From positions 1-33,504 of the forward strand of contig JADYZS010000047.1 of NCBI GenBank assembly GCA_020853075.1: a DNA stretch of 33,504 nt, written 5' to 3'. Within the stretch, counting starts at the first letter, position 1; each line of letters opens with the position of its first letter. The position numbers and the translations under genes were made by a program. Shown in pieces: positions 1 to 23,912 of the stretch. The stretch is from Anaerolineae bacterium (GTDB taxonomy: Bacteria > Chloroflexota > Anaerolineae > JADYZS01). Under the pieces are notes generated by a model. The model was not told the DNA's origin and searched no databases. It saw only the letters and a program-made list of their open reading frames with translations.

Positions 1-60
1 GAGGATGGCAGCAAACGCCAGCACCCCGGCCAGGACGACGGCTCTGCGGTTACGGTTCAT
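1..60 (-). CDS. First 20 codons of an ORF that runs off the left edge; signal-peptide/TM-like N-terminus, product unknown
   Basis: ATG at 60..58 is preceded by GGAAGGCGAAGGAG. It translates MNRNRRAVVLAGVLAFAAIL (basic n-region plus hydrophobic core). It starts 17 nt after the stop of the upstream same-strand gene. Confidence 0.35.
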   Translation of the reverse strand, partial: MNRNRRAVVLAGVLAFAAIL

Positions 61-77
61 GCTCCTTCGCCTTCCGC

Positions 78-1133
78 CTACTCCAGAATGACCTTCTCAT
101 CTACCAATCGCTCGCGCACAAAGCCACCTGTGGTTGCCATGCGGAAGTGAGCAGCGTCCAAAAGATACTCCATATCCAACGCATTTCGCCCCGCGCGGTT
201 CTTCTCTACGCTCATGACGACCCAACTGCGCATGGTCTCGGCCTGCGATGGATTATAGATCATGTGCTCGCGACTGACAATATCGTGCTTGTTGTTGAGC
301 ACGAGGCCGACGTCGGCTTCGTATTGTAGGGCCGAACTTCCCCGGAGGTCCGCCAGGCGCATCCGTTTCGCCTTGAGCCCCGGCCTGTCCGATGCGGCGA
401 TGGCGATGACCTGAATCCCCATGGACATCGCCAATTCCTTCAGCCCTTGCGTCAGGAAGGTCGTTACCTCTGTCTCCGGTTGCAAGGTAGCCATATCCAC
501 CGGGATCTTTTGCAGATAGTCCACCACCAGCAGCAACCGCTGAGGGCCGACTGCGGCCATCTCTTGCACCCATTGGCGGATCTGGTCAAGGGTTGAGGTG
601 TCGCCGCTCGCTTTCACCAGTGCGAGGCGGTTAGAATATGAAGTCATCATATCCACTATGGCAGCGTACCGTGGCATGCGCCGCAACCTTGAGATGAGGC
701 CAACGCCGTTGGGCGTGCCTAAAGCCAATTCCGCCAACCTGCGCAGGGTCAACACCTCTCCCTTGCTGTTCTCTTCCGCGCTCTCAAGGCACAGGAGGCG
801 CGACATCAAGTGAGCACGATCATGCTCGTAACAGACGTATATCGCGCTGCTGCGCTCGTCGTTGTGCACCACGTTGCGCGCGATCTGCAAGGCGAAGATG
901 GTCTTGCCGACACCGTAAGGGCCGCCGACGATCATCAGATCGCCACGGCGTAGCCCCCCGTTGAGCACGTCGTCAAGAGGGTCAAAGCCGGTCGCCAGAG
1001 GCTGAAAGCGGGCCACCTCGCCTCTCGCGACTTGCTGCTCCACTTCCGCCATCACCTGGGCAAGGGTCGCCGGACCTACCGATTCTAATTCCCACCACCC
1101 CGGTTTATTGCTGGTCGGCGTTGGTTCTACCAT
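78..1133 (-). CDS. Stand-alone DnaB C-terminal-domain-like / KaiC-like RecA-fold ATPase (no DnaB N-terminal domain)
   Basis: 351-aa ORF with TGFDPLDDVLNGGLRRGDLMIVGGPYGVGKT (Walker A), LLLVVDYLQK (Walker B) and DLRGSSALQYEADVGLVL (DnaB_C-type C-motif). Only about 45 aa precede the ATPase core. It starts 29 nt after the cpaF stop on the same strand. Confidence 0.8.
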   Translation of the reverse strand: MVEPTPTSNKPGWWELESVGPATLAQVMAEVEQQVARGEVARFQPLATGFDPLDDVLNGGLRRGDLMIVGGPYGVGKTIFALQIARNVVHNDERSSAIYVCYEHDRAHLMSRLLCLESAEENSKGEVLTLRRLAELALGTPNGVGLISRLRRMPRYAAIVDMMTSYSNRLALVKASGDTSTLDQIRQWVQEMAAVGPQRLLLVVDYLQKIPVDMATLQPETEVTTFLTQGLKELAMSMGIQVIAIAASDRPGLKAKRMRLADLRGSSALQYEADVGLVLNNKHDIVSREHMIYNPSQAETMRSWVVMSVEKNRAGRNALDMEYLLDAAHFRMATTGGFVRERLVDEKVILE

Positions 1134-1162
1134 TTGCAGGTGCTCGCTCTGCTATCTATCTT

Positions 1163-2512
1163 CTACTTCGTCTTACGCGTCGGCGTGAAAATAGAAGGGG
1201 ATATGAAGATGCCCGCCGCCTCAATTCTATCCATGAACTTCGGGCGCACACCCGTCACCGTGAAATGGCCTTGCACCCGCCCATCCTTTACACCTGTCTG
1301 GACAAAGCGGAAGATATCCTGCATCACAATGACCTCACCCTCCATCCCCTGCACTTCGGAAATCTGTGTAACCTTGCGCGTTCCATCCGTTAAACGATCC
1401 AGGTGCACAATAAGATCAAAGGCGGAGGCTATCTGCTCGCGCACCGCGCGGAGCGGCAGCTCCATCCCTGCCATCAGGGTCATGGTTTCTATGCGATGTA
1501 AGGTGTCGCGTGGACTGTTGGAGTGGGCGGTGGTCAAAGAACCATCGTGGCCGGTGTTCATGGCTTGTAGCATATCCAGTGCTTCGCCGCCACGCACCTC
1601 GCCTACCACGATGCGATCAGGTCTCATGCGCAGCGCATTGATGACCAGTTGCCGGATCTTAATCTCGCCTTTCCCTTCCACGTTAGGCGGGCGGGCCTCA
1701 AGCCGGACGACGTGGCGTTGGCGGAGTTGCAGTTCCGCTGCATCTTCAATGGTGATGATCCGTTCCTTAGAAGGCAGAAAACTGGAAAGGACGTTCAACA
1801 GCGTCGTCTTGCCGGTGGATGTCCCGCCAGAGATCACGATGTTGAGGCGCGCCAGGACGCACGCGCGCAGAAACTCGGCGATTTCCTGCGTGAGAGCCCC
1901 CAGCCGTATCAGGTCATCGGCACTATAAGCCACTTTCGCGAATTTGCGGATGCTGATGCAAGGGCCCACCAGAGAGAGGGGGGGGATGACGGCATTGACG
2001 CGCGACCCATCAGGGAGACGCGCGTCCACCATCGGACTGCTCTCATCCACGCGGCGACCCAGAGGAGCGACGATACGATCTATAATGCGGAGGACCTGGT
2101 CTGCATCGCGGAAACGGATGTCGGTTTCCTCCAGAACGCCGTTCCTCTCAATGTATATCTGGTCAGGCCCATTCACCAGGATCTCGGTGATGGTCTCGTC
2201 TCGCAACAGCGGTTCAATGGGCCCGTAGCCCAAGATCGCCGCCACGATCTGCTCAAACAACTCTGTGCGTTCGTGGCGGCTCAGGGTAAGTTCCTCTTCG
2301 GCCAACGTCTCCGCGAAGATACGCTCCAAAGCCCGCCGCACTTCCTCAACGTTGCCGATGTCAACCGTAGGGCTCAATTCGGCGAGGAGTCGTCGTTGGA
2401 CACGCTCTCGTATAACCGCGTAGGGCTCTGTGCTATCTGAATGAGCCCCGCTTCCTCCTCTCACGTTATCAGAGCGAGTGACAGGGCGGGTACCGCGAGT
2501 GAAGTTGATCAT
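1163..2512 (-). CDS. cpaF: Tad/Flp pilus assembly ATPase CpaF/TadA (type II/IV secretion NTPase family)
   Basis: 449-aa ORF with Walker A ISGGTSTGKTTLLNVL, IITIEDAAEL, GEVRGGEALDMLQAMNTGHDGSLTTAHSN and the CpaF-type N-terminal region. Confidence 0.9.
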   Translation of the reverse strand: MINFTRGTRPVTRSDNVRGGSGAHSDSTEPYAVIRERVQRRLLAELSPTVDIGNVEEVRRALERIFAETLAEEELTLSRHERTELFEQIVAAILGYGPIEPLLRDETITEILVNGPDQIYIERNGVLEETDIRFRDADQVLRIIDRIVAPLGRRVDESSPMVDARLPDGSRVNAVIPPLSLVGPCISIRKFAKVAYSADDLIRLGALTQEIAEFLRACVLARLNIVISGGTSTGKTTLLNVLSSFLPSKERIITIEDAAELQLRQRHVVRLEARPPNVEGKGEIKIRQLVINALRMRPDRIVVGEVRGGEALDMLQAMNTGHDGSLTTAHSNSPRDTLHRIETMTLMAGMELPLRAVREQIASAFDLIVHLDRLTDGTRKVTQISEVQGMEGEVIVMQDIFRFVQTGVKDGRVQGHFTVTGVRPKFMDRIEAAGIFISPSIFTPTRKTK

Positions 2513-2558: not shown

Positions 2559-4424
2559 CTACCTTATCCAGATCGGATCGTACTCATCCCATTCGGAGTT
2601 GCTGATGTTGCGCACGTTCCTGCCGTCAGCATCCATGACGAAAATCTGCTTCAATCCTGTCCGGTTAGACCAGAAGACGATGCGTTTGCTATCCGGCGAC
2701 CAGGAAGGATGCTTGTCCCATTCCCAGGTGTTTTCTGTGAGTTGCCTGACTCCCGTCCCATCAGTGTTGATCACCCAGATGTCGTCGCTTCCTTTCTCTT
2801 GGCTCACAAAGGCGATGCGACTTCCATCCGGTGACCACACCGGGTCGTAACTGACAGCGGCGAAGGTAGTGAGTTGTTTGGGCGGCTGCTGGCCGAACTG
2901 TCCTGCCGGCAACGCCAGGAAGACCTGCGGTACACGGCCTGCGTTCTGAACGAAGGCGCGGATGCGGCCATCCGGCGAGAGCTGCGCCTTCTGGATGAGC
3001 GCATCGTACTCTCTGCGCCTATCTCGCGTCTCGCTGCCCAGGTATTGCCGGTTCTTCCCCGTGGTGTCCATGACCCAGAGGCCCGGCTGTTTCTCGTCAT
3101 TTGAGTAGAAGATAATCATGTTGCGGTAATCTTGCAGCATCATCGGCGTCGGGGTAGGCGTCGGCGGTGTGGTCGGTGTAGGGAGGGGGGTCGGTGTTGC
3201 CGTCGGCGTTACCGTCGGTGTCGCCGTCGGCGTCAGCCTGGGCGCGATGCTGAACATGCGGCCACGAGCCAGCGCTTTATCGGCCACCGGCAGTTCAACG
3301 GCCTGGCGATACAATTCGTAGGCGAGGTAGAGGTCTCCGGCAGCCTGGCGCTGGTCGCCGCTGCGGATGTAGGCCTCGTAGAGAAGGTTGGCTATGGTTC
3401 CGCCCAGATAATCCGGCCGTTGGTCGTACACGGCCCGCAAGCGCGCGATGGCTTCATCCCACCGCCCCTCGTGATAGCGCGTTTGGCCTTCCATATAGAG
3501 GAGAGCCAAACGCTGTTCCAACGCTGCCTCGGCGCTACGGGGCTGCAAGGCCAGTGCCTTCGTGAAGTAGCCTACGGCCTGTTGCACGTCATCGGTAACT
3601 GGCGGGTTCTGGAGAATAAGCCCGCGTCCCAAGCGCATGTAGAGTTCATAAAGCCTCGCATCTACCACGTCGGGCTTGAAACTGACGTCCAGGTCCTTAA
3701 TCTGTTGGTACTTGGCGATGGCATCCAGAGCGAGACCTGCCCCATAGGCGGCCTCTGCCTCCGCATAGAGACGAGCGACGTCCTGCTGATGCTGGATAGC
3801 CTTGACGCGCAGGCTGACGTCACGATACCCCGCCCTCTTGACTGAGAGTTCGCTGTATTTGGTAAGAGCACCCTGGTAGTCGCCCTCCTCCTGCAAAGCG
3901 ACTGCCTCCTGGTAGAGCGCGAGGATTTCCCGCTCCTCTGCCACTCGCCGCAACCCCTCCTGTGCCTTTTCGTGGTCCGGCACCTGGGCAAGAAGCGCCT
4001 TAAAGCGGGCCTCCGCCGTGTCAAGGTCGCCCCCTTCCAGGTATCCATTGGCTTCCACCAGGAGTTGTGCTCGTTGCCGATCAACCTGAGCCTGAGCCAA
4101 TAGAGGGGCGGCTCGCTCACGGATGAGTCGTACCCCCTGCACGGCAATTACGGCGAGGGTGAGCAACACTAAGATTCGGAAAACCGCCGGGCGCCACTGA
4201 ATGATCCACCTTTTGGCCCGCACGCGAGACTTGGCATCAATGAGAGCCTTGAACTGGGCTTCTTCCAGGGCGCGCTGAATCAGCTGGCTATCTGGGTATT
4301 TCCGCGCCAATTCCTCAAAGGTGCGGATAGCCTCTTGCCACTCTCCGGACTGGAGATGCCCCATACCCTTTCGGAACAGGGGATCGTCTTTGCCGGCAGT
4401 ATGCCCTCCAAGTGCAACTGTCAT
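2559..4424 (-). CDS. Bitopic TPR-repeat protein with Pro/Thr linker and C-terminal PD40/TolB-like beta-propeller
   Basis: 621-aa ORF. It has N-terminal TPR-like helices (GEWQEAIRTFEELARKYPD), one TM helix (VFRILVLLTLAVIAVQGV) and a long TPR-like region. A linker TPTATPTVTPTATPTPLPTPTTPPTPTPTP follows, then SPDGRIRAF / SPDGSRIAFVS / SPDSKRIVFWS repeats typical of PD40 propellers. Confidence 0.8.
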   Translation of the reverse strand: MTVALGGHTAGKDDPLFRKGMGHLQSGEWQEAIRTFEELARKYPDSQLIQRALEEAQFKALIDAKSRVRAKRWIIQWRPAVFRILVLLTLAVIAVQGVRLIRERAAPLLAQAQVDRQRAQLLVEANGYLEGGDLDTAEARFKALLAQVPDHEKAQEGLRRVAEEREILALYQEAVALQEEGDYQGALTKYSELSVKRAGYRDVSLRVKAIQHQQDVARLYAEAEAAYGAGLALDAIAKYQQIKDLDVSFKPDVVDARLYELYMRLGRGLILQNPPVTDDVQQAVGYFTKALALQPRSAEAALEQRLALLYMEGQTRYHEGRWDEAIARLRAVYDQRPDYLGGTIANLLYEAYIRSGDQRQAAGDLYLAYELYRQAVELPVADKALARGRMFSIAPRLTPTATPTVTPTATPTPLPTPTTPPTPTPTPMMLQDYRNMIIFYSNDEKQPGLWVMDTTGKNRQYLGSETRDRRREYDALIQKAQLSPDGRIRAFVQNAGRVPQVFLALPAGQFGQQPPKQLTTFAAVSYDPVWSPDGSRIAFVSQEKGSDDIWVINTDGTGVRQLTENTWEWDKHPSWSPDSKRIVFWSNRTGLKQIFVMDADGRNVRNISNSEWDEYDPIWIR

Positions 4425-4493: not shown

Positions 4494-5459
4494 CTAACCT
4501 CCGTTCAGGCGATTCAGGAAGGTGATGGCGGTCGGTAATGCCGGCCCCAGAGCCACGACAAACATCGCAGGGAAGATAAACAAAATGAGGGGAAATACCA
4601 TCTTGACGCTGGCCTGTTGGGCCAGCTCCTCGGCCCGCTGCCGGCGTTTCATGCGCACCTGGGCCGCTTGTGCGTGTAGCACCTGGGCAATGCTGACACC
4701 CAACTGGCTTGATTGCAGCAAAACGGCCACAAAGGTGCTGACCTCCTGCACGCCTGACCGTTCGGCCATCCGTTGCAAAGCAACGTCGCGGGGGGTTCCC
4801 ACCCGCATCTCGGCGACAGCCCGGCGGAATTCCCGTGTCAGCGCATTGTTCCACTTCTCTCCGACCTTGACCATGGCTGATTCAAAGGCGAGTCCCGCTT
4901 CAACACCGATGGTCAACATATCAAGGGCATCCGGCAGGGCTCTCCTGATCTCGTATTTCCGCTGGTTCACACGATTGCGCAACCAGTAGAGAGGCACAAA
5001 GAAGCCGATCCCGCCCATGATGAGGGTATTGCGCGCGGCGGTAGCGACAGGGACGTTCTCGCCGAAGAGGAAGTAATAGCCTCCTCCCAGGAGTAAAACA
5101 GAAAGCAGGCGGAGGCCGAAGAAGTCAAGCATGGTCAGGCCGCCGGGGTTGCCAGCCTGAAGCAGCATCTTCTGCGTTGCCTCCGCGTTTCGTTTCGGCG
5201 CAAGCGAGCCGAGGAGACGCAAGAATCGGCGGAAGAGCGGCAACACGACCCGGCCGGCGAAGGGCTTGCGCATCTCGGCGTCTTCTATAACATCAACCCG
5301 TTCCAGGTAGCCGTCCAGCCTTCTGCGAATCATCTGGGCAGGGAAGGATGGCATGAACGCCAACCAGATAAGGATCGTGGCGAAACCGATCATCGCCCCG
5401 AAGGCGAAAGGTGAGGAGAATAAGCCACCGTTCACCAGCAGGTTGGTAATATCCACCAT
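4494..5459 (-). CDS. tadC: Tad pilus platform protein TadC (T2SS-F family)
   Basis: 321-aa polytopic ORF with a T2SSF-type cytoplasmic domain (LPDALDMLTIGVEAGLAFESAM ... SQLGVSIAQVLHAQA). It lies adjacent to tadB. Confidence 0.85.
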   Translation of the reverse strand: MVDITNLLVNGGLFSSPFAFGAMIGFATILIWLAFMPSFPAQMIRRRLDGYLERVDVIEDAEMRKPFAGRVVLPLFRRFLRLLGSLAPKRNAEATQKMLLQAGNPGGLTMLDFFGLRLLSVLLLGGGYYFLFGENVPVATAARNTLIMGGIGFFVPLYWLRNRVNQRKYEIRRALPDALDMLTIGVEAGLAFESAMVKVGEKWNNALTREFRRAVAEMRVGTPRDVALQRMAERSGVQEVSTFVAVLLQSSQLGVSIAQVLHAQAAQVRMKRRQRAEELAQQASVKMVFPLILFIFPAMFVVALGPALPTAITFLNRLNGG

Positions 5460-5464
5460 GCCCC

Positions 5465-6436
5465 TTACACCTCAATATCCAGTATCCTGCGGATGACCAG
5501 GAAGCCTGCCACCATCATAATCACAGCCGCAACCGGGAGGAGTCGCACCCAGCCCGGCTCAAAAAGACGGCTCATATACTCCGGACGCATGAGGAACAGG
5601 AGAACGGCGAGCACAACCGGCAATACCGCCAGCACGTATCCGCTCAAGCGTTGCTGGGCTGTGAGGACGAATATCTCTCGTTTGATACGTATGCGGTCGC
5701 GCACGGTCTCGCCGATAACCTCCAGGGTTTGAGCCAGGTTGCCGCCCATCTCATACTGGACATTGATGGCCGTCACCACCAAATCCGCGTCGTCGGTGCC
5801 GATACGATCTGCCATGTCGCTCAGCGCCTGCTGGGCCGAGAGGCCAAGCCCGATTGCGCGCACGACGCGCGCGAACTCGGCAGAGGCCGGCGGCGGCAAT
5901 TGTTCTATAACCACGTGCAGCGATTGGGATATACCATAGCCCGCGCGCAACGCGCCCACCAATAACGTGAGCACGTCTGGCAATTGCTCGGTGAAGGCGT
6001 TCTGGCGGCGTTGTCTCTTGACGCCAACGTAGAAGATAGGCGCATAGCCGAGGAGTGCTGCCAGAGCAAGGCCGATCAGGGGGCCGCCACGGGCGAAACC
6101 TATGAGAAAGCCAAAGAAGGCTGCGCCCAGGATCAGCATGGTGAACTCGGCTACGGTGAACGGCAGGTCGGCGCGCGCAATCTCCCTCGCCAGGATGGGC
6201 CCCAGGCCGAACCCCTGCATAATCCGGTTGATTCCCGTCAGGGCTGGTCGCCGTAGGGTCGCGTAGGGGCTGGTGTCTGGGTTGGCTGGCAGGTTCTTGG
6301 TCAGGCCGCTGTATTGGCGCAGGCGGGCCTCAATGGGGTCCTCGGTGCGCGCCATGCGCCACAGGGCGATAAAGAAGGTCATGATGGCGATCATGACGAG
6401 AAAGCCAAAAGTCAGCGGTCCCATACTGCTCCCCAT
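5465..6436 (-). CDS. tadB: Tad pilus platform protein TadB (T2SS-F family)
   Basis: 323-aa polytopic ORF with a T2SSF domain (LPDVLTLLVGALRAGYGISQSL ... YEMGGNLAQTLEVIGETVR). A 5-nt gap separates it from tadC. Confidence 0.85.
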   Translation of the reverse strand: MGSSMGPLTFGFLVMIAIMTFFIALWRMARTEDPIEARLRQYSGLTKNLPANPDTSPYATLRRPALTGINRIMQGFGLGPILAREIARADLPFTVAEFTMLILGAAFFGFLIGFARGGPLIGLALAALLGYAPIFYVGVKRQRRQNAFTEQLPDVLTLLVGALRAGYGISQSLHVVIEQLPPPASAEFARVVRAIGLGLSAQQALSDMADRIGTDDADLVVTAINVQYEMGGNLAQTLEVIGETVRDRIRIKREIFVLTAQQRLSGYVLAVLPVVLAVLLFLMRPEYMSRLFEPGWVRLLPVAAVIMMVAGFLVIRRILDIEV

Positions 6437-6727: not shown

Positions 6728-8035
6728 TCAAACGTTAGCGGAACGAAAGCCTCGGCGCAACCGGCCCATCAAGCCGCCTTTCGCCTCCTCGCCCATAGAG
6801 GCCGGCATCATCTCGTGTCTCAGATCGTCGGCGAGCATGCGGGCAAGTTGCCTGATGGCTCTGGCAACCGCGCTGCGCCGGTGGCTCATCACCATCGGTA
6901 CCCCTCTATTGACGCTGTGGGTTGCCAGGGGCTGGTCATCTGGGATTCTATACCTCACTTGCACGTGCAAGCGTTCTCCGATGTCTCGTGCAGAAATACC
7001 GCCCGGTATCGTGGCACGGTTCAGCACAAGCCACAGCTTCTCATTGGGGTAGCCGCGCTCGTGCAGTTGGTCAAGCATGAGGCGCGTGTTGCGCAGGCCC
7101 ACCATCTCCGGCAACACGGTCATTACGATGCGGTCTGCCCCATCCAAGAAGGCGAAGGCGGTCTCGTCCAAAGGCAATCCCAGATCAACCACAACCCAGG
7201 GAAACATCTTTTTAAGGCGGGCAAGGACTTGCTGCACCTGGGGCAGTGTGATAGGAGTGGATAGGTCGCCGGGCGGCGGCGCCAGCAAGATGCGTACCCC
7301 TGATACGTGGCTGGCGAGCACGCTGGAGACCAGGTCTTCATCCAGGCGCGAAAGTCGCGGCAGCAAGTCCGAGATGTTGCGCTCCTGGTAGAGATTCAAG
7401 GCTACATCCAGGGCGGGAGCAGCGAAATCGGCGTCCACCAGGATAACGGATCTGCGGTCTATCGCTTGTAGGCTGACCGCTGTGTTGATCGCTAGGGTTG
7501 TGCGCCCCGTGCCTCCCTTCGGCGCGCAGAAGACAATGATGCGCCCGTTGGCGCCTCCTCCACCCTCTGGCTCCTGGGTGCGGCTGCCCCGTTGGGCCAG
7601 GACCTGCCGCAGGCTGGCGATGAGGTCGTCGGTATGAAGTGGCTTCGTAACGAATCCGCGCGCGCCCGCGAGGACGGCCTGGCGCGCTCGGTTCATGGCG
7701 CCTGCCTCTATCAACGCGAGAATCGCGGCTCCCGGCACGCGCGAGGAGAGTTGGGTGATGAGCGCATTGGCGTCGGCTCCGCCGAGCGCGTCATCCACCA
7801 AGACCACGTGGGGAACCAAGTCCTGAGCACGCACAGGAGCCAACTCTGGCTGCGCCACCCAATAGAGCCGGTGATCACCTGCCCCTCGTGCCAGGGATTC
7901 CCCGATTTCATCTCTTGCACTTTCTGCTGTACTGACAAGGAGAATGCGCAGGGCTTCTCCGGGAATTAACGTCGGCAATTGCCCCTCCACCGGGCTGTTG
8001 ACTGTTAAAGCCTGCCCTATTATACCACAACTCAT
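6728..8035 (-). CDS. cpaE: CpaE/TadZ: receiver-like N-terminal domain fused to ParA/MinD-type ATPase
   Basis: 435-aa ORF with an N-terminal REC-like segment (RILLVS...VVLVDDALGG) and a deviant Walker A VFCAPKGGTGRTTLAINTA. Its position in the tad operon fits. Confidence 0.85.
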   Translation of the reverse strand: MSCGIIGQALTVNSPVEGQLPTLIPGEALRILLVSTAESARDEIGESLARGAGDHRLYWVAQPELAPVRAQDLVPHVVLVDDALGGADANALITQLSSRVPGAAILALIEAGAMNRARQAVLAGARGFVTKPLHTDDLIASLRQVLAQRGSRTQEPEGGGGANGRIIVFCAPKGGTGRTTLAINTAVSLQAIDRRSVILVDADFAAPALDVALNLYQERNISDLLPRLSRLDEDLVSSVLASHVSGVRILLAPPPGDLSTPITLPQVQQVLARLKKMFPWVVVDLGLPLDETAFAFLDGADRIVMTVLPEMVGLRNTRLMLDQLHERGYPNEKLWLVLNRATIPGGISARDIGERLHVQVRYRIPDDQPLATHSVNRGVPMVMSHRRSAVARAIRQLARMLADDLRHEMMPASMGEEAKGGLMGRLRRGFRSANV

Positions 8036-8246: not shown

Positions 8247-9071
8247 CTACGGCCCCACCTTCGTCGGGATCTGGTAACGGTTGATAAGATAGTCCACATC
8301 TACCGGCTCTGCCGGAAGGGGGCGCTCCATACCTGGCGCGCGCAGGACTACGTCCATGATACCGCCGGCATCCTTCACGTATTTCAATACCAGGGCGTCT
8401 TGCGCGCTCACCGCCAGCAGCAGCGCGTCCGGAGCGCGCGTATCACCACCTGTGGGGGTTCTGCCGGCCACGATAGCCGAGATGGTTACGTTCTGGAGCA
8501 GATTGAAGGTCGCTTGCTCCTTCTCGCGTATCACCACCGTTCCGCTGGTTGTGCCTCCTGCTTCGCTAGGTGTAGTAACCTGGGTGCCGCGATTGGCGGG
8601 GAACTCCAGCGAAAAGAGGAGGTCCACGTGGTCGCCGGGCTTCAGAACACCCACGCGGCTCATCAGGTCCTGAGCGGGGATCGCCATCAGCACTTCGTCT
8701 GCCGCGACAACCAGAGCCAACCGTCCATCGGCAGAGGTGACGTTAGGATCCAAGAGGCGTTGGGCCAGGACAACCTCGCCTGGATAGAGGTCCACCAGCG
8801 TCAGGCGGCCGGCGGCCTGTTCCACCTCGCGGATAGCCCCTTCGGGCACGGAATCTACCGGGATGTCCTTCAGTTGCAGGTCACCGGCGCTCAGAAGTGA
8901 TCGCACCGCGAGCGCCCGCGCCGCGACTACCACTTTTACCCTCGGTTGCACAACCTCCTGACCTGTGCGCTGGGCCGTGGCCCTTGTCAGGCTGATGAAG
9001 GCGACGAAGCCCGCCAAAACCGCAACAACCAAGCCGGCCGTTAGCCACAGGAGACCTCGCAAACGTCCCAT
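8247..9071 (-). CDS. cpaB: Flp pilus assembly protein CpaB/RcpC
   Basis: 274-aa ORF with an N-terminal TM anchor (LLWLTAGLVVAVLAGFVAFI) and a SAF-like segment (VKVVVAARALAVRSLLSAGDLQLKDIP). AGGAGGG lies 5 nt upstream of the ATG. Confidence 0.8.
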   Translation of the reverse strand: MGRLRGLLWLTAGLVVAVLAGFVAFISLTRATAQRTGQEVVQPRVKVVVAARALAVRSLLSAGDLQLKDIPVDSVPEGAIREVEQAAGRLTLVDLYPGEVVLAQRLLDPNVTSADGRLALVVAADEVLMAIPAQDLMSRVGVLKPGDHVDLLFSLEFPANRGTQVTTPSEAGGTTSGTVVIREKEQATFNLLQNVTISAIVAGRTPTGGDTRAPDALLLAVSAQDALVLKYVKDAGGIMDVVLRAPGMERPLPAEPVDVDYLINRYQIPTKVGP

Positions 9072-9247: not shown

Positions 9248-10357
9248 CTATTGTATCAAACGCAAGCGGATACGGTCAAAGATCGTTTGGTAGATCGCCA
9301 GGAGATCGCCGGCAGTGGGCGCATAAAATGCTTCGCCGTTGGTTATGTCGGCGATATCCTGCATCAAGCCCATGTCGGCGTTGTCACCCAGGCCGATGGC
9401 ATAGATGACAATGTTGTTTTGCGCGGCGATGTCTGCCTGGTTGCGTGTTGAGCTCTGTGCGGCAGCACAGGTGCCCGTTGGGCTGGAGCAGCAGTCAATG
9501 CCTTCATTTGGCACTTTGTTCGGGAGCCCATCGGTTAGGAAGACAATGATGCGCAACGCGTTGGCCCGTCCGCGCGGGCTTATCAGTTCGTTTTTCCCTG
9601 TTGCGATGCCTCCTGGTGCGTTGGTACAGCCGTTCGCCGTCAACACATCAAGGGCAGATTTTACCGCCGGGAAATTAGAAGTCAGTTGTTGATTGAGGGT
9701 CGCGTTATCCGCATACGATGCCAGGCCCATGTGGGTCAGGTTGGGGTTGTTCATATCCACGAAGGCTTTGGCCGCGTCCTTTGCGTCGGTGATGGGTTGC
9801 GGTGGTAAGGTCCAAACGCCACCACAGGCGATACAAGATGACTCGCTGGCGCCACAAGGGATGCTACACGAGTCGTCATCCATGCTGCCGGAGCGGTCAA
9901 AAACCAACATGATGTCCAGAGGCGAGAAGCCGCCCCCCGCCGTCCCTGCCGCGCTGATGGTGTTGAATCCTACCACACCGGCGAAGATGGTGGGGAAGGT
10001 CGTCCTGGCGATGACCTTGATGCCAGTAGCATTGGCAGGGACGGGCCCGCCGCCGACTACTTCGTTGCCGGGAAGGTAGTATGCCTCAAAAGACAGCGCC
10101 CGGTTCTGATTGATGGCGTATTCGTACACCGCGTCATAGACATCGTCGTCAATGCCGCCGTCGGCCAGAACCCAGGCTCCCGCCAGGGCTGCGGCGTCGG
10201 CGGCATTCTGCATCCGGCGCCGCTCTGTGTAGGCCAGACCAAAATCAATCGCCAGGGCCAATATGGAAAGGAGCGCGAGGGTGCTGAGTGCCACCAGGAT
10301 CAGCGACTGTCCACTTTCGTTACGCTCGCTTCTTTTCGTAAGCGGCCTCATAGCCAC
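9248..10357 (-). CDS. tadG: TadG-like pilus protein with von Willebrand factor A domain
   Basis: 369-aa ORF with a TadE/G-like N-terminus (SGQSLILVALSTLALLSILALAIDFGLAY) and a MIDAS motif DIMLVFDRSGSMDDD. Cys-rich inserts are present (CSIPCGASESSCIACGG; IDCCSSPTGTC). Confidence 0.8.
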   Translation of the reverse strand: MAMRPLTKRSERNESGQSLILVALSTLALLSILALAIDFGLAYTERRRMQNAADAAALAGAWVLADGGIDDDVYDAVYEYAINQNRALSFEAYYLPGNEVVGGGPVPANATGIKVIARTTFPTIFAGVVGFNTISAAGTAGGGFSPLDIMLVFDRSGSMDDDSCSIPCGASESSCIACGGVWTLPPQPITDAKDAAKAFVDMNNPNLTHMGLASYADNATLNQQLTSNFPAVKSALDVLTANGCTNAPGGIATGKNELISPRGRANALRIIVFLTDGLPNKVPNEGIDCCSSPTGTCAAAQSSTRNQADIAAQNNIVIYAIGLGDNADMGLMQDIADITNGEAFYAPTAGDLLAIYQTIFDRIRLRLIQ

Positions 10358-10377: not shown

Positions 10378-10764
10378 CTACTCTATCTGCATGGTGGAGA
10401 CGCTGTTGAGCCGGAGGGTTGGATTTCCTCCCGCGATCTCCATGACAAAGCCGGTGATCAGGCTTACGTCGTAAATCGCTTCTACCCGGATGGTGTTGCC
10501 CCCTGGCCGGGTGATGTTGATTTGCAACGCGCCGCTGCTGAGCCCCGAAGTCAAGCGACGGGCCGCCGCCTCAATACCGGCGTCGTCGGTGGGATGGACG
10601 ATGCCGTAGCGGGCCCCTTCGCGCGTAGCGTTGGCAATCGTGTCATAAGAAAAAATGATGATCCCAAAGTCAATGATACCGAAAAGAAGCAAGAAAAGGA
10701 GGGGCAAAATGATGGCGAATTCTACGACCTCTTGCCCTTTATCGCTTCGCAAGCGTTTCCACAT
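10378..10764 (-). CDS. TadE/TadF-like pseudopilin
   Basis: 128-aa ORF with the TadE-type N-terminus GQEVVEFAIILPLLFLLLFGIIDFG. Confidence 0.8.
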   Translation of the reverse strand: MWKRLRSDKGQEVVEFAIILPLLFLLLFGIIDFGIIIFSYDTIANATREGARYGIVHPTDDAGIEAAARRLTSGLSSGALQINITRPGGNTIRVEAIYDVSLITGFVMEIAGGNPTLRLNSVSTMQIE

Positions 10765-10776
10765 CGGCGTTTTTCC

Positions 10777-11163
10777 TCAGCGGGCGCGGAACACCGCAGT
10801 TGCCTGCAGCGGTATACTACCGCTCCCCAAGACGCCTCCCATCACCAGAGAGAAGTTCATCTGCACGGTGACTCGCACCGGATTCCCCGATCCGCTTTGC
10901 GTTACCGAGCAGGTTGCCGTAGAGAGGTCCACGCCGCTGGTGCTGGCCTCGTTCACGACGGTAGTGCAGATTCTGCCGGTGTCCCACGGATAATTGACGC
11001 CGACGCGGGCCCCTTCGCGCGCGGCGTTCAGCATTGTGATGTAAGTGTGGTAGGCGCGGCCAACGTCCACCACGCCCGCCAGTATCAACAGCAGGAGGGG
11101 GACAATGATGGCTGTTTCTAACAAACTAGCGCCCACCTCGCGGGGGCGCTTGTCTTGCAGCAT
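10777..11163 (-). CDS. TadE/TadF-like pseudopilin (start trimmed relative to the 182-aa track ORF)
   Basis: Has the TadE-type segment GASLLETAIIVPLLLLILAGVVDVGRAY. The internal ATG at 11163 (MLQDKRPREV...) gives 128 aa, the same length as the paralogue, with GGGGAG upstream. The longer N-terminal extension is low-complexity and probably non-coding. Confidence 0.75.
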   Translation of the reverse strand: MLQDKRPREVGASLLETAIIVPLLLLILAGVVDVGRAYHTYITMLNAAREGARVGVNYPWDTGRICTTVVNEASTSGVDLSTATCSVTQSGSGNPVRVTVQMNFSLVMGGVLGSGSIPLQATAVFRAR

Positions 11164-11274
11164 AATCTTTGCTTGCTCCCCATGGTGGGAAAAGGAGCCG
11201 ATCCGGTGGGCTCGCTTAGATCCCCGCAAGTCGCCCCGTTCATCGCGAGGCCACTTTTGTTGCATGATGGTACA

Positions 11275-11337
11275 GGGGGGCAGCACTTGGCTGGGGGCCC
11301 TTCGTATTGGCTGCCCCCCTCCCAAGGCCCGAAGGCC
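11275..11337 (-). terminator. Two GC-rich stem-loops immediately 3' of flp (mRNA-stabilising or partial-termination structures)
   Basis: One is a 10-bp perfect stem GGGGGGCAGC/GCTGCCCCCC (11275-11284 / 11310-11319). The other is GGCC-UUCG-GGCC on the minus strand (11326-11337). Neither has a clear U-tract. Confidence 0.35.
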
Positions 11338-11344
11338 GTATGGG

Positions 11345-11533
11345 CTATTTGGTGAGCTCGGTCACAGCCTTCTGGAGAGCCGTGCTGACCGCATTGGCAA
11401 CCTGCGGGAAGACCGCGACCAGGGCTACGGCGACGAGAAGGACGAGCAGGGCATATTCCACCACGTCCTGCCCCTCTTCATCGCGCAGCGCGCGCAGCAT
11501 ATTGACAATGCGAAGATAGAAGAGTTCTACCAC
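11345..11533 (-). CDS. flp: Flp-family type IVb/c prepilin
   Basis: Has the Flp motif EEG/QDVVEYALLVLLVAVALVAVF (G-x4-EY followed by a hydrophobic helix). The GTG at 11533 lies 8 nt downstream of AGGAGG (62 aa). An alternative ATG at 11500 gives 51 aa. The track ORF to 11614 is over-extended. Confidence 0.8.
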   Translation of the reverse strand: MVELFYLRIVNMLRALRDEEGQDVVEYALLVLLVAVALVAVFPQVANAVSTALQKAVTELTK

Positions 11534-11605
11534 GTTCTGTTCCTCCTGGGGCAGCGCCCCTGTCTTTGAATCGCAGTGCAAGCGTTCCCAGAGCGATAAT
11601 GCAGA

Positions 11606-11629
11606 AACGCCCACTTTCTGGTGGGCGTT
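11606..11629. promoter_or_regulatory. 9-bp perfect hairpin in the probable flp 5' leader
   Basis: AACGCCCAC-TTTCTG-GTGGGCGTT. On the minus strand the stem is followed by UCUGCAUUAU. Confidence 0.3.
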
Positions 11630-16833: not shown

Positions 16834-17904
16834 TTATCCCATCGCCTCCACCAGCGCCCGCACGATCTCCTTTGGTGAACCGATGATACCCCAATCGGCG
16901 GCTTTCAACAAGGGAGCATCGCTCTCGCGACATAAGGCGATAACGGCCCGGGCGCCTTCCATGCCCAGGTAATGCTCCGTCGTTCCTTCTATGCCGCAGG
17001 CGATGTAGAGCGCGGGCGTGACGATCACACCCAGCGCGCCGACCTGCTGCTCCGGCCCGATCCAGCCCATGTCCAGCGCGCCACGGTCCCCGGCGATGGC
17101 CGCGCCCAGCCGTGCCGCCAGTTGCTGTACCAGCGCAAAACCCTCCGCATCTTCCATCCCGCGCCCTGCGCTGACGACGATGCGCGCGGTGGTGAGCGCA
17201 GGGGGCGACGCGACTTCCGGCGCGGGCTCATATTGCACCGCGTCGGGCTGCCATGATGCGGATAGTTGCTCTATGCTCCCTGTGCGGCTGCGGTCAGGGT
17301 AGGGCAGGGGGAACGCGCCCGCGCGCACTGTGACGATCTGCGGCTTCGCCAGGCAGGCGATGACCTGGGAGGCTATACCCTCGTAGATGGGGCGGGTGAC
17401 GAGGAGGGCGCGGTCTATGGGGTCAGCGCGCACGTCCTCAGCCTCGGTGACGAGGGATGCATCCAATGCCTGGGCGACGCGCGCGGCGAGGGCACGGTTA
17501 GTGATGCTGTCATCCAGCAGGACGATCTCCGGCTTGCGCTCGCGCAGGAACGCGGCCAGCGTCTCCGCGTCGGCCTGGCCGGGAGCCAGATAGACGTAAT
17601 CTGCGCCGTGCGCAATGAGTGTCTGTGCCGTCTCTTCGTCGGGCGCGCCGGCCAGCAGGAACCGCACGTAAGCCCCCAACCCATCGGCTAGCCCGCGCGC
17701 CTTGCCCACGGTCTGCAAAGATAGGTCGGAAAGCCGGCCCTCAACGGCAGAGGCCAGCCCCCAAATATCCCGGTAGCCTTCCTCTCCTACCGGCTCGCCC
17801 ATTAACGCTTCCAGATACGATAGGTCTTGCATGGTTTTCGCTTTCAAAGAGTGCCTGGCGGAGTTGCCTTCCGTCATGCTGAGCCCCCGCAGGGGGCGAA
17901 GCAT
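16834..17904 (-). CDS. etfA: Electron transfer flavoprotein alpha subunit
   Basis: Has the C-terminal ETF-alpha FAD-binding region VVSAGRGM ... GDRGALDMGWIGPEQQVGALGVIVTPALYIACGIEGTTEHYLGM. The start is uncertain: ATG 17904, 17877 or 17832. Confidence 0.8.
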   Translation of the reverse strand: MLRPLRGLSMTEGNSARHSLKAKTMQDLSYLEALMGEPVGEEGYRDIWGLASAVEGRLSDLSLQTVGKARGLADGLGAYVRFLLAGAPDEETAQTLIAHGADYVYLAPGQADAETLAAFLRERKPEIVLLDDSITNRALAARVAQALDASLVTEAEDVRADPIDRALLVTRPIYEGIASQVIACLAKPQIVTVRAGAFPLPYPDRSRTGSIEQLSASWQPDAVQYEPAPEVASPPALTTARIVVSAGRGMEDAEGFALVQQLAARLGAAIAGDRGALDMGWIGPEQQVGALGVIVTPALYIACGIEGTTEHYLGMEGARAVIALCRESDAPLLKAADWGIIGSPKEIVRALVEAMG

Positions 17905-17968
17905 CTCAAGCCTGTTATTGAGACCCTTCGCTGCGCTCAGGGTGACAACCTGGATTCCGTCAGGGGTG

Positions 17969-18748
17969 CTAAATGAGCCTTTTTCCTCTCAACTCCGCGA
18001 CCAGGGAGCGCGCGGCCTCCTCCGGCGAGCCGGAGAGGATGAAGCCCAGGTTGCGCTCCGGCGGCATCACTAGGTTGCGTTCCTCTGTGTGCCGCGCCGA
18101 GATTTCTTCTGGCGACAGGCCCAGGTCGTCGCAGTCCCAGGTCTCTACCTCTGCCTCGCGGTAAGCCCAGGCGATGCGTAGCGCGGGCGGGTAGCGCGGC
18201 TTCTCTCTCTGGCGCGTGACGGCCAGGACCGCAGGCAAGGCGACTGAGACAGACCATCGTTGCTTTTCGTCCCTCTGGAACGCGCGGAGGATACTATCTT
18301 CTAATTGCGGTTCTGACGCATCCGTCACCACAGGCCAGCCTAGTTCTTGCGCCAGGCGGGCAGGGAGCGTACCCCCGCCGGTATCCAACGCGCGCTCGCC
18401 CGTGAGCACCAGGCTCACGTCGCCGATGTGCTCCACCGCGCGCGCGAGGGCTCTTGCCACACCTGACGCGTCCGCTCCGGCCAACATCTCGTCGCTCAGG
18501 AGGATGGCACGATCCGCGCCCATCGCCAGCGCCTCGCGCAGCGCGTCGCTTACGTCCCGCGCGCCGACGCTTAGGGCGATGACCTCGCCTCCGTGCCGTT
18601 CCCGTAGGCGCAGCGCGGCTTCCAAAGCGTATCTATCCGGCGGATTGACGATGCGCGCGGCCTGGCGCGGGTCAATAGCCTCGCGCGAGCGAGAGAGTCT
18701 CACGGCGCGCGGGTCAAGGATTTGCTTGATGCAGACGGCGATACGCAT
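17969..18748 (-). CDS. etfB: Electron transfer flavoprotein beta subunit
   Basis: 259-aa ORF starting MRIAVCIKQILDP, with NPPDRYALEAALRL and overall ETF-beta organisation. GGAG lies upstream of the ATG. Confidence 0.85.
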   Translation of the reverse strand: MRIAVCIKQILDPRAVRLSRSREAIDPRQAARIVNPPDRYALEAALRLRERHGGEVIALSVGARDVSDALREALAMGADRAILLSDEMLAGADASGVARALARAVEHIGDVSLVLTGERALDTGGGTLPARLAQELGWPVVTDASEPQLEDSILRAFQRDEKQRWSVSVALPAVLAVTRQREKPRYPPALRIAWAYREAEVETWDCDDLGLSPEEISARHTEERNLVMPPERNLGFILSGSPEEAARSLVAELRGKRLI

Positions 18749-18772
18749 GTCGGACTCCGAATTTCTATCTTA

Positions 18773-18827
18773 CCGCAGAGTCCGCAGAGAACACTTTTTA
18801 CCTCTGTGCTCTCGGCGTTCTCTGCGG
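18773..18827. repeat. CCGCAGAG-type hairpin repeat in the ACAD/etfB gap
   Basis: Direct CCGCAGAG (18773-18780) and CCGCAGAGAAC (18782-18792). The latter pairs with GTTCTCTGCGG (18817-18827). It shares CTCTGTGCTCTC with the 23883 repeat arm. Confidence 0.5.
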
Positions 18828-18834
18828 TTAATTC

Positions 18835-20001
18835 TCACGGACGTATCCGCACACCTGCCTCGCGGAATAACTCCGTGGCGATGACGATACGCTGGATCTC
18901 GTTGGTTCCCTCAAACAACTCCGCGATGCGGCTGTCGCGCAACATCCGCTCCAGAGGGAAATCGCGGCTGTAGCCCAGCGCGCCGTGGATCTGCATGGCA
19001 CGGTCCACGCAGCGCGAGGCGATCTCGCTCCCCAGGAGCTTGCACATCCCGGCCTCTTTGGTGAAAGGCTGCTTTGTATCTACCAGCCAGGCGGTGCGAT
19101 AGACCAGCGAGCGCAGGGCCTCTATCTCCGCGGCCATCTCTGCGACCATGAATTGCACCGACTGCAAATGGGCCAGGGGGCGGCCAAATTGCTCGCGCAC
19201 GCGGGCGTAACGAATCGCCATTTCCAAAGCCGTCTCCGCGCCGCCGAGGCAAGCCGCGCCCAGCGTTACGCGCCCCACGTCCAGGCTCTGCATGAAAGTC
19301 ACGAACCCAAGTCCCACCTGGCCCAAGACGTTCGCCGCCGGCACCTCCACCTCGTCAAAGATCAACTCGGCGGTGGCGCTGCCGCGAATACCCATCTTAT
19401 CCTCAATCGTGCCGACCTTATAGCCCGGATACTCTTTCTCTACGATGAAGGCGGTGACGCCGCCGCGCGCGCCCAGCGCGGGATCGGTGACGGCCATCAC
19501 CGAGATGATGTCGGCGAAGGAGCCGTTGGTGATGTAGATCTTCGTGCCGTTGAGGATGTAGCGGTCACCGTCGCGGACGGCGCGGGTGCGTATAGCTGCG
19601 GCGTCGGAGCCCGCGCCCGGTTCGGTGAGCGCGAAGGCAGCCAGTTTCTCGCCACGAGCCAGGGGAACCAGATACCTTTGCTTCTGCTCCTCGGTGCCAC
19701 CCAGATAGATCGCCATGGCGCCGATACCGATGTGCGCGCCGATGAAGGTCGCGGTGGAGGTGCACACGCGGCCCATCTCCTCCAACAAGATGCAATAACC
19801 CATCTCGCCCAGGCCCGCGCCGCCGTACTTCTGCGGAAACGGCACACCTAGCAAGCCCGCTTGCCGTAGTTTCGGAATCGTCTCCCAGGGGACGCGATCC
19901 TCCCGATCTATCGTGGCCGCGAGGGGGCGCACCTCTTCCTCGGCGAACTCGCGCACCATGCGCCGGAAGGCGACCATCTCAGGTGGAAACGAGAAGTCCA
20001 T
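18835..20001 (-). CDS. Acyl-CoA dehydrogenase
   Basis: 388-aa ORF with ACAD N/M/C domain motifs ([14 protein letters not shown]; ...[15 protein letters not shown]). Confidence 0.9.
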
Positions 20002-20020
20002 CTCCTCAGGCTCCTTGCTA

Positions 20021-20287
20021 GGTCAGCGGAAAGAGATACACCACGGAGACACGCAGAATAGATTCAGCGGATAGGTAGCGGATTAGCGGATGGTCCCTAC
20101 GGGCTGCTTTTCGTCTCTCCCCCGTTCGTTTTACGGGGGAGGGTTGGCCGCGAAGCGTTCCGTCGCTTGCACCTGTGCTGGGCTGCGCCCGGCCAGGGCG
20201 CAGGGTCGACTAATCGGCGCAAGCCAACAGGCACGCGGGTGTGGGGGCCTTTCGCTAATCCGCTACGCCGCAGGCATCCGCTGACCC
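20021..20287. repeat. MITE-like composite element bounded by inverted TCAGCGGAT/TAGCGGATTAGCG ends
   Basis: The left end at 20064-20091 is TCAGCGGAT-AGG-TAGCGGATTAGCGGAT. The right end at 20253-20287 is the reverse complement of GGGTCAGCGGATGCCTGCGGCGTAGCGGATTAGCG. Internal 8-bp hairpins lie at 20117-20141 and 20183-20203. GCTTGCACC...GGCGCAAGCC arms are shared with 14307-14330. It also has an upstream TCAGCGGAA (20023-20031) and CCACGGAGACAC (20041-20052). Confidence 0.6.
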
Positions 20288-20296
20288 CCTGTGGCA

Positions 20297-21445: not shown

Positions 21446-21481
21446 GTTCGTTGTGTACCTCTGCCTTCACCCTTCCCCTTC

Positions 21482-21548
21482 GCCCCGTACGGCGAGTACG
21501 CCCACGGGGCTTCCCCTTCCCTCTTCCATATTTAGGAGAGGGAAGGGG
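21482..21548. repeat. Two stem-loops in the ECH/ACAD gap
   Basis: GCCCCGT (21482-21488) pairs with ACGGGGC (21504-21510). CCCCTTCCCTCT (21513-21524) pairs with AGAGGGAAGGGG (21537-21548), a 12-bp perfect stem. The flanking CCCTTCCCCTTC tract also occurs upstream of the M50 gene, near 16390-16402. Confidence 0.5.
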
Positions 21549-21585
21549 TTGGGGGGATAGGTGAGGGCCGTCCTTTTCTCCACCC

Positions 21586-22380: not shown

Positions 22381-22414
22381 TTTCTACTCCTTTGAGTCCT
22401 AATCGGTGCAGCCT

Positions 22415-22499
22415 GCCATCGGATAAATCCGACGGCTACATTCGCAAAACCCGCAGAGCGGGTTTCTTGATCGATAGCCGTCGGTTTCCAACCGATGGC
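22415..22499. repeat. Modular hairpin cassette, copy 2
   Basis: Hairpins at 22415-22436 (GCCATCGGAT-AA-ATCCGACGGC), 22447-22465 (AAACCCGC-AGA-GCGGGTTT) and 22477-22499 (GCCGTCGGTT-TCC-AACCGATGGC). The architecture matches 8087-8219. Confidence 0.6.
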
Positions 22500-22511
22500 C
22501 GGCACTCTGAA

Positions 22512-23744: not shown

Positions 23745-23767
23745 GCGTGCCTCCTGACTTCTCGCTT

Positions 23768-23909: not shown

Positions 23910-23912
23910 CAT

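Follow-up and report, generated by a model that had tools for sequence, protein, structure and literature searches.

A DnaB-type RecA-fold ATPase encoded in the Tad pilus operons of a group of Chloroflexota

Results and discussion

A DnaB-like gene behind cpaF

The 33,504-bp window analysed here, an entire contig (JADYZS010000047.1) from a metagenome-assembled genome (MAG) of an Anaerolineae bacterium, carries on its minus strand a complete monoderm-type tad operon, which extends from a probable flp pilin gene to the motor ATPase gene cpaF (tadA) and is followed by a gene for a protein that resembles the C-terminal, ATPase-bearing part of the replicative helicase DnaB. We refer to the product of this gene (78..1133, minus strand; 351 amino acids from an ATG start) by the working name DnaBC, and all residue numbers given below are those of the window's protein. 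The preceding cpaF gene (1163..2512, minus strand; 449 amino acids) is recognised by Pfam T2SSE (2.4e-66) and, as its best NCBIfam match, by the TadA-family model TIGR03819 (1.5e-104). The 29 nt that separate the two genes (1134..1162) contain no terminator-like hairpin on the minus, i.e. coding, strand. Another open reading frame (ORF) starts at position 60, 17 nt past the stop codon of DnaBC and on the same strand, and runs off the window; the 20 codons that are visible (1..60, minus strand) resemble a signal peptide, and the counterpart of this gene at a locus 93% identical to the window (L004) encodes an FG-GAP repeat protein of 536 amino acids. The 351-residue ORF with its DnaB_C motifs and both intergenic distances had been pointed out in an earlier note on this DNA, and all of them were found as described there.

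The assignment to the DnaB_C family rests on several comparisons. In Pfam, DnaBC matches DnaB_C (PF03796) over residues 46-317 (model positions 2-239 of 255) with an E-value of 8.7e-26 and 91.3 bits (cut-off 27), and the same model is the best Pfam match for each of the 105 sequences in our family alignment. The ~45 residues ahead of the core form a linker helix without any Pfam match to the DnaB N-terminal domain (PF00772), as the earlier note had read from the length of this region, and the NCBIfam DnaB alignments begin at about model position 157, which is the DnaB linker-helix region. Its statement that the protein is not the replicative helicase likewise stands, given the missing N-terminal domain and a score of 86.9 bits against the DnaB equivalog model TIGR00665, which has a cut-off of 385.25; all other DnaB models also score far under their cut-offs.

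The sequence motifs of the DnaB core (all on the minus strand) can be followed along almost the whole protein. Walker A or H1, GGPYGVGKT (residues 70-78; 900..926), contains G76, K77 and T78, which are invariant in an alignment of nine sequences that includes canonical DnaB, while in the 105-sequence family alignment G76 is invariant and K77 and T78 are nearly so. H1a, YEH (residues 102-104; 822..830), contributes the catalytic Glu103, nearly invariant in the family and aligned with the glutamate of SLEM/SMEM in canonical DnaB, and Walker B or H2, LLLVVDYLQ (residues 200-208; 510..536), contributes D205, which does not vary either within the family or in DnaB. Towards the C-terminus, EKNRAGR (residues 310-316; 186..206) holds the trans-acting Lys311 and the arginine finger Arg313, both of which are invariant in 105/105 family sequences and in DnaB. 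To judge from these alignments, all elements of an inter-subunit ATPase site (K77/T78, E103, D205 and, in trans, K311/R313) are kept, and since by the established mechanism of DnaB and RecA such trans-acting residues place the active sites between subunits, an oligomeric ring would be expected.

The two motifs that concern DNA behave differently from each other. The H4 loop, DLRGSSALQYEAD (residues 262-274; 312..350), which corresponds to the DNA-binding-loop motif of DnaB, aligns with DLRESGAIEQDSD of DnaB; in the clade described below, R264, G265, S266 and S267 do not vary, and the stretch R264...D274 aligns with canonical DnaB. The third motif quoted in the earlier note, DLRGSSALQYEADVGLVL, lies at residues 262-279. 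In the H3 region, VIAIAASDR (residues 242-250; 384..410), the sensor glutamine of DnaB is replaced by Ala247: two canonical DnaB proteins read IALSQLSR and IALAQLNR, each with the Gln, where DnaBC reads AASDR. No member of the tad-linked clade deviates from Ala247, and the consensus of the wider family is AAD. In canonical DnaB the H3 sensor glutamine couples hydrolysis to DNA, and its loss would therefore argue against a canonical coupling of this kind in DnaBC. Compared with the same two DnaB proteins, DnaBC further possesses a conserved C-terminal tail and two insertions, one of ~25 residues (residues 140-165) and one of ~7 residues that follows H4.

Structure prediction leads to the same family. 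A first AlphaFold model, based on 20 close homologues, had a predicted local distance difference test (pLDDT) score of 61.6 and an unusable C-terminal half; the prediction was rerun with the alignment of 105 diverse family sequences, and the resulting AF2 model has a pLDDT of 93.9 and a predicted template modelling score (pTM) of 0.92. Its best 50 Foldseek matches in the PDB are exclusively DnaB or G40P (E ~1e-17, ~320 of 351 residues aligned), among them DnaB of B. stearothermophilus with single-stranded DNA (ssDNA), E. coli DnaB, V. cholerae DnaB and the ATPase domain of SPP1 G40P, with a template modelling score of 0.68 normalised to the query and of 0.84 normalised to the G40P domain. A profile of the family likewise matches DnaB over its full length among PDB sequences (4e-32 to 1e-21). 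DnaBC thus shares with the C-terminal domain of DnaB and G40P the fold including the linker helix, as well as the conserved Walker A, H1a glutamate, Walker B, H4 and arginine finger, and differs from it in having no primase-binding N-terminal domain, in the H3 Gln to Ala replacement, in the two insertions and the tail, and in occurring as one copy per tad locus within a pilus operon.

The earlier note had called the protein KaiC- or ArlH-like, and as a statement of family membership this has to be given up. Pfam KaiC (PF06745) covers only residues 47-112 (4.8e-8, 33 bits), no archaeal KaiC model extends over more than 67 residues, and in the comparison of the family profile with the PDB, the matches of KaiC and of three single-domain KaiC-like proteins from archaea (PH0284, PH0186 and SSO2452) are confined to positions ~31-101; these matches amount to the ~65-residue region around Walker A, and no FlaH/ArlH chain occurs among the best 60 PDB profile matches. 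By profiles and by predicted fold, DnaBC falls outside both the replicative DnaB proteins and the KaiC/ArlH proteins; its homology is to the DnaB_C family, and it is best regarded as a DnaB-derived RecA-fold ATPase which has lost the DnaB N-terminal domain and kept the linker helix.

The DnaB N-terminal domain is still present in two members of the family, the full-length DnaB-like proteins P0131 and P0137, and their C-terminal domains bear the family signatures (CYEHD, AADR and the C-terminal tail), which indicates that the family is a DnaB paralogue lineage now mostly without that domain; in evolutionary terms, P0131 and P0137 may be intermediates that link DnaB with the stand-alone proteins. 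No Rosetta-stone fusion with a pilus protein was found among the longer family members, which possess instead the DnaB N-terminal domain, low-complexity tails or, in P0139, a helical repeat. The latter (residues 20-80 at the N-terminus of P0139; LGQLLIEQYGLSPEQL...LGRILISLGYVSSHQL) resembles a motif of the GspE/MshE N-terminal type, for which a weak match to DUF4388 (E 0.0019) is the one profile hit in support.

Conservation and gene order

Relatives of DnaBC are numerous, with 953 database matches of which the best 120 are 64-100% identical; the family is real, far beyond chance and under strong purifying selection. For the survey of its genomic surroundings one genome per GTDB species was used, and the best 80 of 153 relatives were analysed. 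A locus entered the synteny count if its orthologue was at least 55% identical and at least 1.5 kb of upstream DNA was available (n = 55), and neighbouring genes were annotated by tblastn and hidden Markov model (HMM) searches with the window's own proteins. In 52 of these 55 loci cpaF lies directly upstream of DnaBC on the same strand, with a median spacer of ~21 nt, and the membership in the operon that the earlier note had proposed is thereby borne out well beyond the window.

Exact-protein look-ups retrieved four homologues (68-93% identity) from MAGs of Ardenticatenaceae, Caldilineae and further Chloroflexota, which have one common gene order, cpaB-cpaE-tadB-tadC-(~620-aa protein)-cpaF-DnaBC, usually followed by a NERD-domain protein of ~620 amino acids and, in several contigs, next by tadE, tadG and a prepilin peptidase gene. 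The general order of this architecture, type A hereafter, is flp - tadE - (tadG) - cpaB - cpaE - tadB - tadC - TPR/PD40 - cpaF - DnaBC - (FG-GAP) - (NERD) - tadE/G - prepilin peptidase. In a neighbour-joining tree of the family the tad-linked DnaBC proteins form a single clade, with the non-tad pair L066/L068 as its sister. Four MAGs possess two DnaBC loci each, all of them in tad context; the tad operon is complete at both loci in three of the pairs (L051/L059, L055/L057 and L062/L065), and in the fourth (L056/L080) only the NERD gene, tadE and the prepilin peptidase gene are visible downstream at L056. DnaBC is also among the slowest-changing products of the operon: its median identity to the window protein is 63.7%, compared with 75.7% for CpaF and 45-61% for the other five of seven operon proteins, and it ranks second in 19 of 24 loci as well as overall. 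These comparisons indicate that a distinctive Tad operon of Anaerolineae, Caldilineae and Ardenticatenia has DnaBC as a dedicated component, which is inherited vertically together with it. The published Tad table of cultured L. aerophila stops at tadA.

Two orthologues from within the clade are found away from tad genes, at L011 (3199-4239; 71% identity) and, in a Litorilinea MAG, at L038 (7949-8944; 65%). Their neighbours encode a PMT_2/NHL protein and a non-ribosomal peptide synthetase-like enzyme together with an ABC transporter, and the displacement could reflect relocation or mis-binning.

The same survey bears on the possibility that DnaBC is merely an unrelated helicase beside tad genes, whether a paralogue of replicative DnaB, what is left of a phage, plasmid or integrative element, or a gene from an anti-phage defence island. 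Such a reading could draw on the name 'replicative DNA helicase' which Joint Genome Institute (JGI) pipelines give to family members, on the DnaB N-terminal domain of P0131 and P0137, and on weak matches of DnaBC to the defence model mad8 (8e-7, 26.8 bits) and of its NERD neighbour to MAD6 (1.8e-9, 36.7 bits). These have to be set against the lack of an N-terminal domain in DnaBC and its score far under the DnaB equivalog cut-off, against the synteny in 52/55 species and in the duplicated loci, and against the housekeeping nature of the flanking genes, both in the window and in the orthologous contigs. Phage and plasmid DnaB proteins are only ~28-30% identical to DnaBC, and an origin from either was rejected. 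The one 'phage' record at 35% identity (L089; MT839844.1, 'UNVERIFIED: Bacteriophage sp.') adjoins dxr and a gene for an RseP-type M50 protease, and looks like a fragment of a high-GC bacterial chromosome rather than a phage. A defence island was rejected as well: the mad8 similarity is a generic one of P-loop proteins, that to MAD6 is confined to the N-terminal NERD part, and both lie far under the thresholds (cut-off 460 for MAD6), with no methylase of a MADS system in the annotated orthologous loci. Links to mobile elements, or orthologues scattered away from tad genes, were among the outcomes by which the earlier note would have let its proposal fall, and neither is what the survey shows. 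The chance-neighbour reading, which we consider highly improbable, is largely refuted and effectively excluded by the synteny survey; an annotation error that recurs in the naming of family members as replicative helicases can be corrected accordingly.

A second architecture and the limits of the association

Seen from the side of the motor, the association is restricted. Among 80 metagenomic relatives of cpaF (52-76% identity), 58 had a downstream sequence of 1.3 kb or more; the canonical order cpaE-cpaF-tadB-tadC is found in 48 of the 58, and DnaBC is present in two of them, namely L092, which has the architecture of the window, and L165, where it is the gene after tadC. The remark of the earlier note that a RecA-fold ATPase of this kind stands outside the canonical Tad set thus agrees with its absence from 56 of 58 other cpaF loci, and DnaBC is accordingly a lineage-specific accessory of particular Tad variants and not a general component. 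No other RecA-like partner was seen downstream of cpaF in the non-canonical loci, where HTH, TPR, GNAT, FHA and ABC proteins occur instead.

L165 (1741-7866) and L084 (3227-11840, from a Chloroflexia MAG) share a second gene order, cpaB-cpaE-cpaF-tadB-tadC-DnaBC-prepilin peptidase (type B), with a homologue 39% identical to the window protein; in L084 this gene overlaps that of the peptidase, and 47 nt separate it from the gene containing tadC. The link between DnaBC and Tad therefore recurs in two gene orders. In the neighbour-joining tree the type B homologue groups with non-tad homologues, which suggests either an old association or a second recruitment. A homologue in Actinomycetota (L088) is convergent to a tad operon, 115 nt from the operon end.

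The more distant homologues (38-45% identity) from Chloroflexia and Actinomycetota have neighbours such as a LysM-YkuD transpeptidase and typA, a TgpA-like transglutaminase and prfA, an aldehyde dehydrogenase, or an M20 peptidase, and among those loci examined none has a mobile or DNA-related context. In two Chloroflexia MAGs (L069, 7260-9953; L073, 7365-9953) a 43%-identical homologue lies ~50 nt downstream of a gene for a TgpA-like transglutaminase membrane protein of 860-900 amino acids, on the same strand and near prfA, a further setting of the wider family that recurs.

Possible roles of DnaBC

Tad pili have been described as machines with one motor, CpaF/TadA, and the ParA-like TadZ, and how one motor can both extend and retract the pilus still calls for an explanation. 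The present comparisons suggest that the Tad machine of one Chloroflexota group uses a third, previously undescribed ATP-driven protein. Tad loci are present in about one third of Chloroflexota genomes and have been published as comprising only tadA, tadB, tadC, tadZ, tadE, rcpC and flp; neither our literature search nor the Chloroflexota Tad gene tables or the surveys of type IV filaments consulted contain a description of a DnaB- or KaiC-type Tad component. DnaBC resembles TadZ/CpaE in being an accessory cytoplasmic P-loop ATPase of the tad operon, and is unlike it in that TadZ is dimeric, of the ParA/MinD type, and has a receiver-like domain; as TadZ/CpaE is also present in the window (6728-8035), DnaBC is an addition and not a replacement. 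A conserved third ATPase with the ring-forming fold of a helicase, in a large environmental clade and confined to a subset of Chloroflexota Tad loci, would represent a new kind of Tad accessory.

The closest functional precedent comes from Archaea. ArlH is the KaiC-like partner of the TadA homologue ArlI and acts as a hexamer bound to it, KaiC-family ATPases are associated with many archaeal type IV pilus (T4P) loci, and in the Epd pili, which are archaeal relatives of Tad, the FlaH gene is contiguous with the ATPase gene (Denise et al.). Like ArlH/FlaH and the KaiC-like proteins of archaeal T4P and Epd loci, DnaBC is a single-domain ATPase of the RecA superfamily which shares its operon with, and is usually contiguous to, a TadA/ArlI-type motor, and it also has the conserved catalytic glutamate after Walker A; contiguity with the motor gene is a contextual feature and not homology. 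The two differ in that ArlH and FlaH are proteins of ~230 amino acids from the KaiC/FlaH family, whereas DnaBC has 351, belongs to DnaB_C, possesses the DnaB linker helix, the H4 motif and the Lys/Arg finger, and is bacterial and encoded alongside TadZ/CpaE. We also considered tadB-tadC-cpaF-DnaBC as an ancestral, Epd-like order and dropped this idea, as FlaH has been placed where TadZ sits (Denise et al.) and the type B order differs; for these reasons gene order is not used here as evidence of common descent with FlaH.

Because of the tight spacing of cpaF and DnaBC, the co-inheritance of DnaBC with tad loci and the archaeal precedent, we favour, tentatively and with slightly less than even confidence, the reading that DnaBC modulates CpaF or the TadB/C platform in the manner of ArlH. 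DnaBC would assemble into a cytoplasmic hexameric ring and, in addition to CpaF and CpaE, supply the base of the machine with a third ATPase. It would most likely dock on, or signal to, either the TadB/C platform or the hexamer of CpaF, and its nucleotide state could govern assembly or the change between pilus extension and retraction. It would then be a functional analogue of ArlH and of the archaeal T4P KaiC-like ATPases, for which a DnaB-type and not a KaiC-type paralogue had been recruited independently. If this is true, DnaBC would offer a bacterial test case for the ArlH/KaiC style of control known only from archaeal filaments, and would show that another RecA lineage can arrive at the same solution. 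A further conjecture, to which we give a little less credence than to ArlH-like modulation, is that a hexameric ring ATPase of replicative-helicase ancestry serves as a stoichiometric third Tad ATPase, either stacked on CpaF or threading DNA. Stacked on CpaF, it would be a convergent bacterial counterpart of the archaellum's ArlH-ArlI pair from a different RecA lineage; threading DNA, it would constitute an unrecognised pilus-coupled DNA-translocation machine in monoderm Chloroflexota.

Several observations weigh against an ArlH-like role. DnaBC does not resemble KaiC or ArlH beyond the common RecA core, and all of the evidence is comparative and comes from MAGs and metagenomes, with a family tree that is a neighbour-joining tree free of bootstrap or other support values. 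The in-clade orthologues at L011 and L038 are not beside tad genes, and ~17 of 19 more distant homologues (38-45% identity) are found in unrelated housekeeping contexts. In type B loci, DnaBC follows tadC and not cpaF, which weakens the argument from adjacency to cpaF. Finally, DnaBC retains the H4 DNA-binding-loop motif of DnaB including its arginine, and since a DnaB RecA core can by itself be a helicase, a nucleic-acid substrate is possible.

The difference in neighbours between the two architectures, cpaF in type A and tadC plus prepilin peptidase in type B, would fit a regulatory or assembly ATPase of the Tad system that does not work through CpaF, i.e. a KaiC-style switch acting with CpaE, TadB/C or the NERD protein, which determines where or when the machine is built or how prepilins are handled. 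The frequent adjacency of a membrane-anchored cytoplasmic NERD protein is compatible with such a switch, and so are the varied contexts of the non-tad paralogues, as expected of a general-purpose switch module, and the proposal that archaeal KaiC-like ATPases regulate varied T4P systems. We nevertheless regard this possibility as unlikely, as the near-universal tight spacing in type A loci (median ~21 nt) is most simply explained by expression coupled with the motor.

The retained H4 motif, in turn, is among the features that would favour a DNA motor coupled to the pilus, in the form of an ssDNA translocase or helicase that imports, exports or processes DNA captured by Tad pili, comparable to ComFA or RadA and perhaps acting at the membrane together with the NERD protein. 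The fold and the best structural matches are those of DnaB bound to ssDNA (4ESV, 7T22), and the H4 motif D-L-R-G-S-S...E-A-D is conserved. A stand-alone core of this type is known from the RecA-core-only DnaB-like proteins of mycobacteriophages, among which truncated Wildcat Gp80 demonstrates that a DnaB-type core without the N-terminal domain is an active ATPase and still a helicase (PMC4523182); these are phage replication proteins, whereas DnaBC is chromosomal and embedded in a pilus operon, and shares only the above ~28-30% identity with phage DnaB. One study reports that Flp/Tad pili are needed for natural transformation in Micrococcus luteus (PMC4322843), and the best NCBIfam model of the window's CpaF carries the name 'TadA family conjugal transfer-associated ATPase'. 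The family-wide replacement of the H3 glutamine by alanine speaks against a motor on DNA, as does the wider family, which is not associated with genes of DNA metabolism; ComEC, ComEA, DprA or relaxase genes were not seen in the annotated orthologous loci. On balance we consider a DNA motor improbable, with the same credence as the switch independent of CpaF; were DNA movement nevertheless true, it would provide a mechanistic link between Tad pili and gene transfer in filamentous Chloroflexota, which are dominant in activated sludge and sediments.

The nuclease-related NERD protein could have a part in both of these alternatives. Within 2.5 kb downstream of DnaBC it is present in 29 of 45 loci, with a length of ~620 amino acids (L004, 12798-14687; L001, 11245-13176; L006, 11180-13024; L007, 11143-13020), and its NERD domain, which is cytoplasmic, is followed by a middle region that is conserved and by four to five C-terminal transmembrane helices. 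For a DNA motor this neighbour would be a point in favour, which is countered by the variation of the catalytic Asp and Glu-x-Lys positions (D / E-x-K) among the four orthologues, and by the absence of any match to the NERD protein HMM in one whole tad-linked subclade and in all distant loci. We therefore rejected the NERD protein as an obligate nuclease partner; it is a frequent yet dispensable companion of DnaBC and, from its residues, probably not an active nuclease. The NERD protein is weakly like the N-terminus of MAD6 while DnaBC weakly matches mad8, and this pairing of a NERD and a RecA-like protein may or may not be meaningful.

Other genes of the operon and the window

With Flp, TadE/G, CpaB, TadZ/CpaE, TadB, TadC and TadA/CpaF, the set of Tad proteins is present in one locus, and prepilin peptidase and Flp are seen in the orthologous loci. 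No secretin gene was found in the tad locus, in accordance with the published account for the phylum Chloroflexota. Upstream of cpaF lies a gene (2559..4424, minus strand) for a membrane-anchored protein of 621 amino acids with TPR repeats, a proline/threonine-rich linker and a PD40/TolB-like propeller, recognised by Pfam PD40 and TPR and, under the cut-off, by an NCBIfam TolB propeller model (4.7e-27). It has one transmembrane segment, and its position between tadC and cpaF is kept in nearly all type A loci. The protein is a conserved lineage-specific tad accessory, and may be a Chloroflexota-specific envelope-spanning one that possibly replaces secretin or TadD functions.

The remaining operon genes, all on the minus strand, are typical of tad loci. 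The platform proteins TadC (4494..5459) and TadB (5465..6436) match Pfam T2SSF (2.8e-16 and 8.9e-18, respectively). CpaE/TadZ (6728..8035) combines a receiver domain with a ParA/MinD-like ATPase (Pfam Response_reg, AAA_31, CbiA and ParA; the NCBIfam matches to MinD and CpaE_hom_Actino are both under their cut-offs), and is preceded by cpaB/rcpC (8247..9071; Pfam SAF and RcpC). The pilin genes comprise a TadG-like pseudopilin with a vWA domain (9248..10357; Pfam Tad, TadE and VWA), a TadE-like minor pilin (10378..10764), which was recognised in the sequence and whose L004 homologue in the same position carries PF07811 TadE, and a second TadE-like ORF with an uncertain start codon (10777..11325), read from a hydrophobic N-terminal TadE-like segment of its sequence only; a TadE gene occupies the equivalent position in L004 and L007. 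The probable Flp pilin (11345..11500; ~51 amino acids from an internal Met) was recognised by a G/QDVVEY processing motif in the translation of ORF 11345..11614 only, and the orthologous operon in L001 opens with PF04964 Flp genes.

A sigma-70-like promoter match (TTGTCA-17-TATAAT, 11/12) is located at 252-280 on the minus strand, inside the DnaBC coding sequence and ~190 nt upstream of the start of the next gene; such sites are no more numerous in the region than expected from shuffled sequence. On plasmid pMESIL02 of Allomeiothermus silvanus (L090; 48.6-52.4 kb), full-length dnaB and rusA lie between genes annotated as type II secretion/pilin-like and as type II secretion F-family, another but unrelated instance of a DnaB gene surrounded by genes of type IV filaments. 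Elsewhere in the window are genes for peptidases, a beta-CASP RNase and enzymes of beta-oxidation, with no mobile-element genes among them. The beta-oxidation cluster (16834-25118, minus strand) comprises electron transfer flavoprotein alpha, two acyl-CoA dehydrogenases, a 3-hydroxyacyl-CoA dehydrogenase and a thiolase, and thus places the tad operon in an ordinary chromosomal context.

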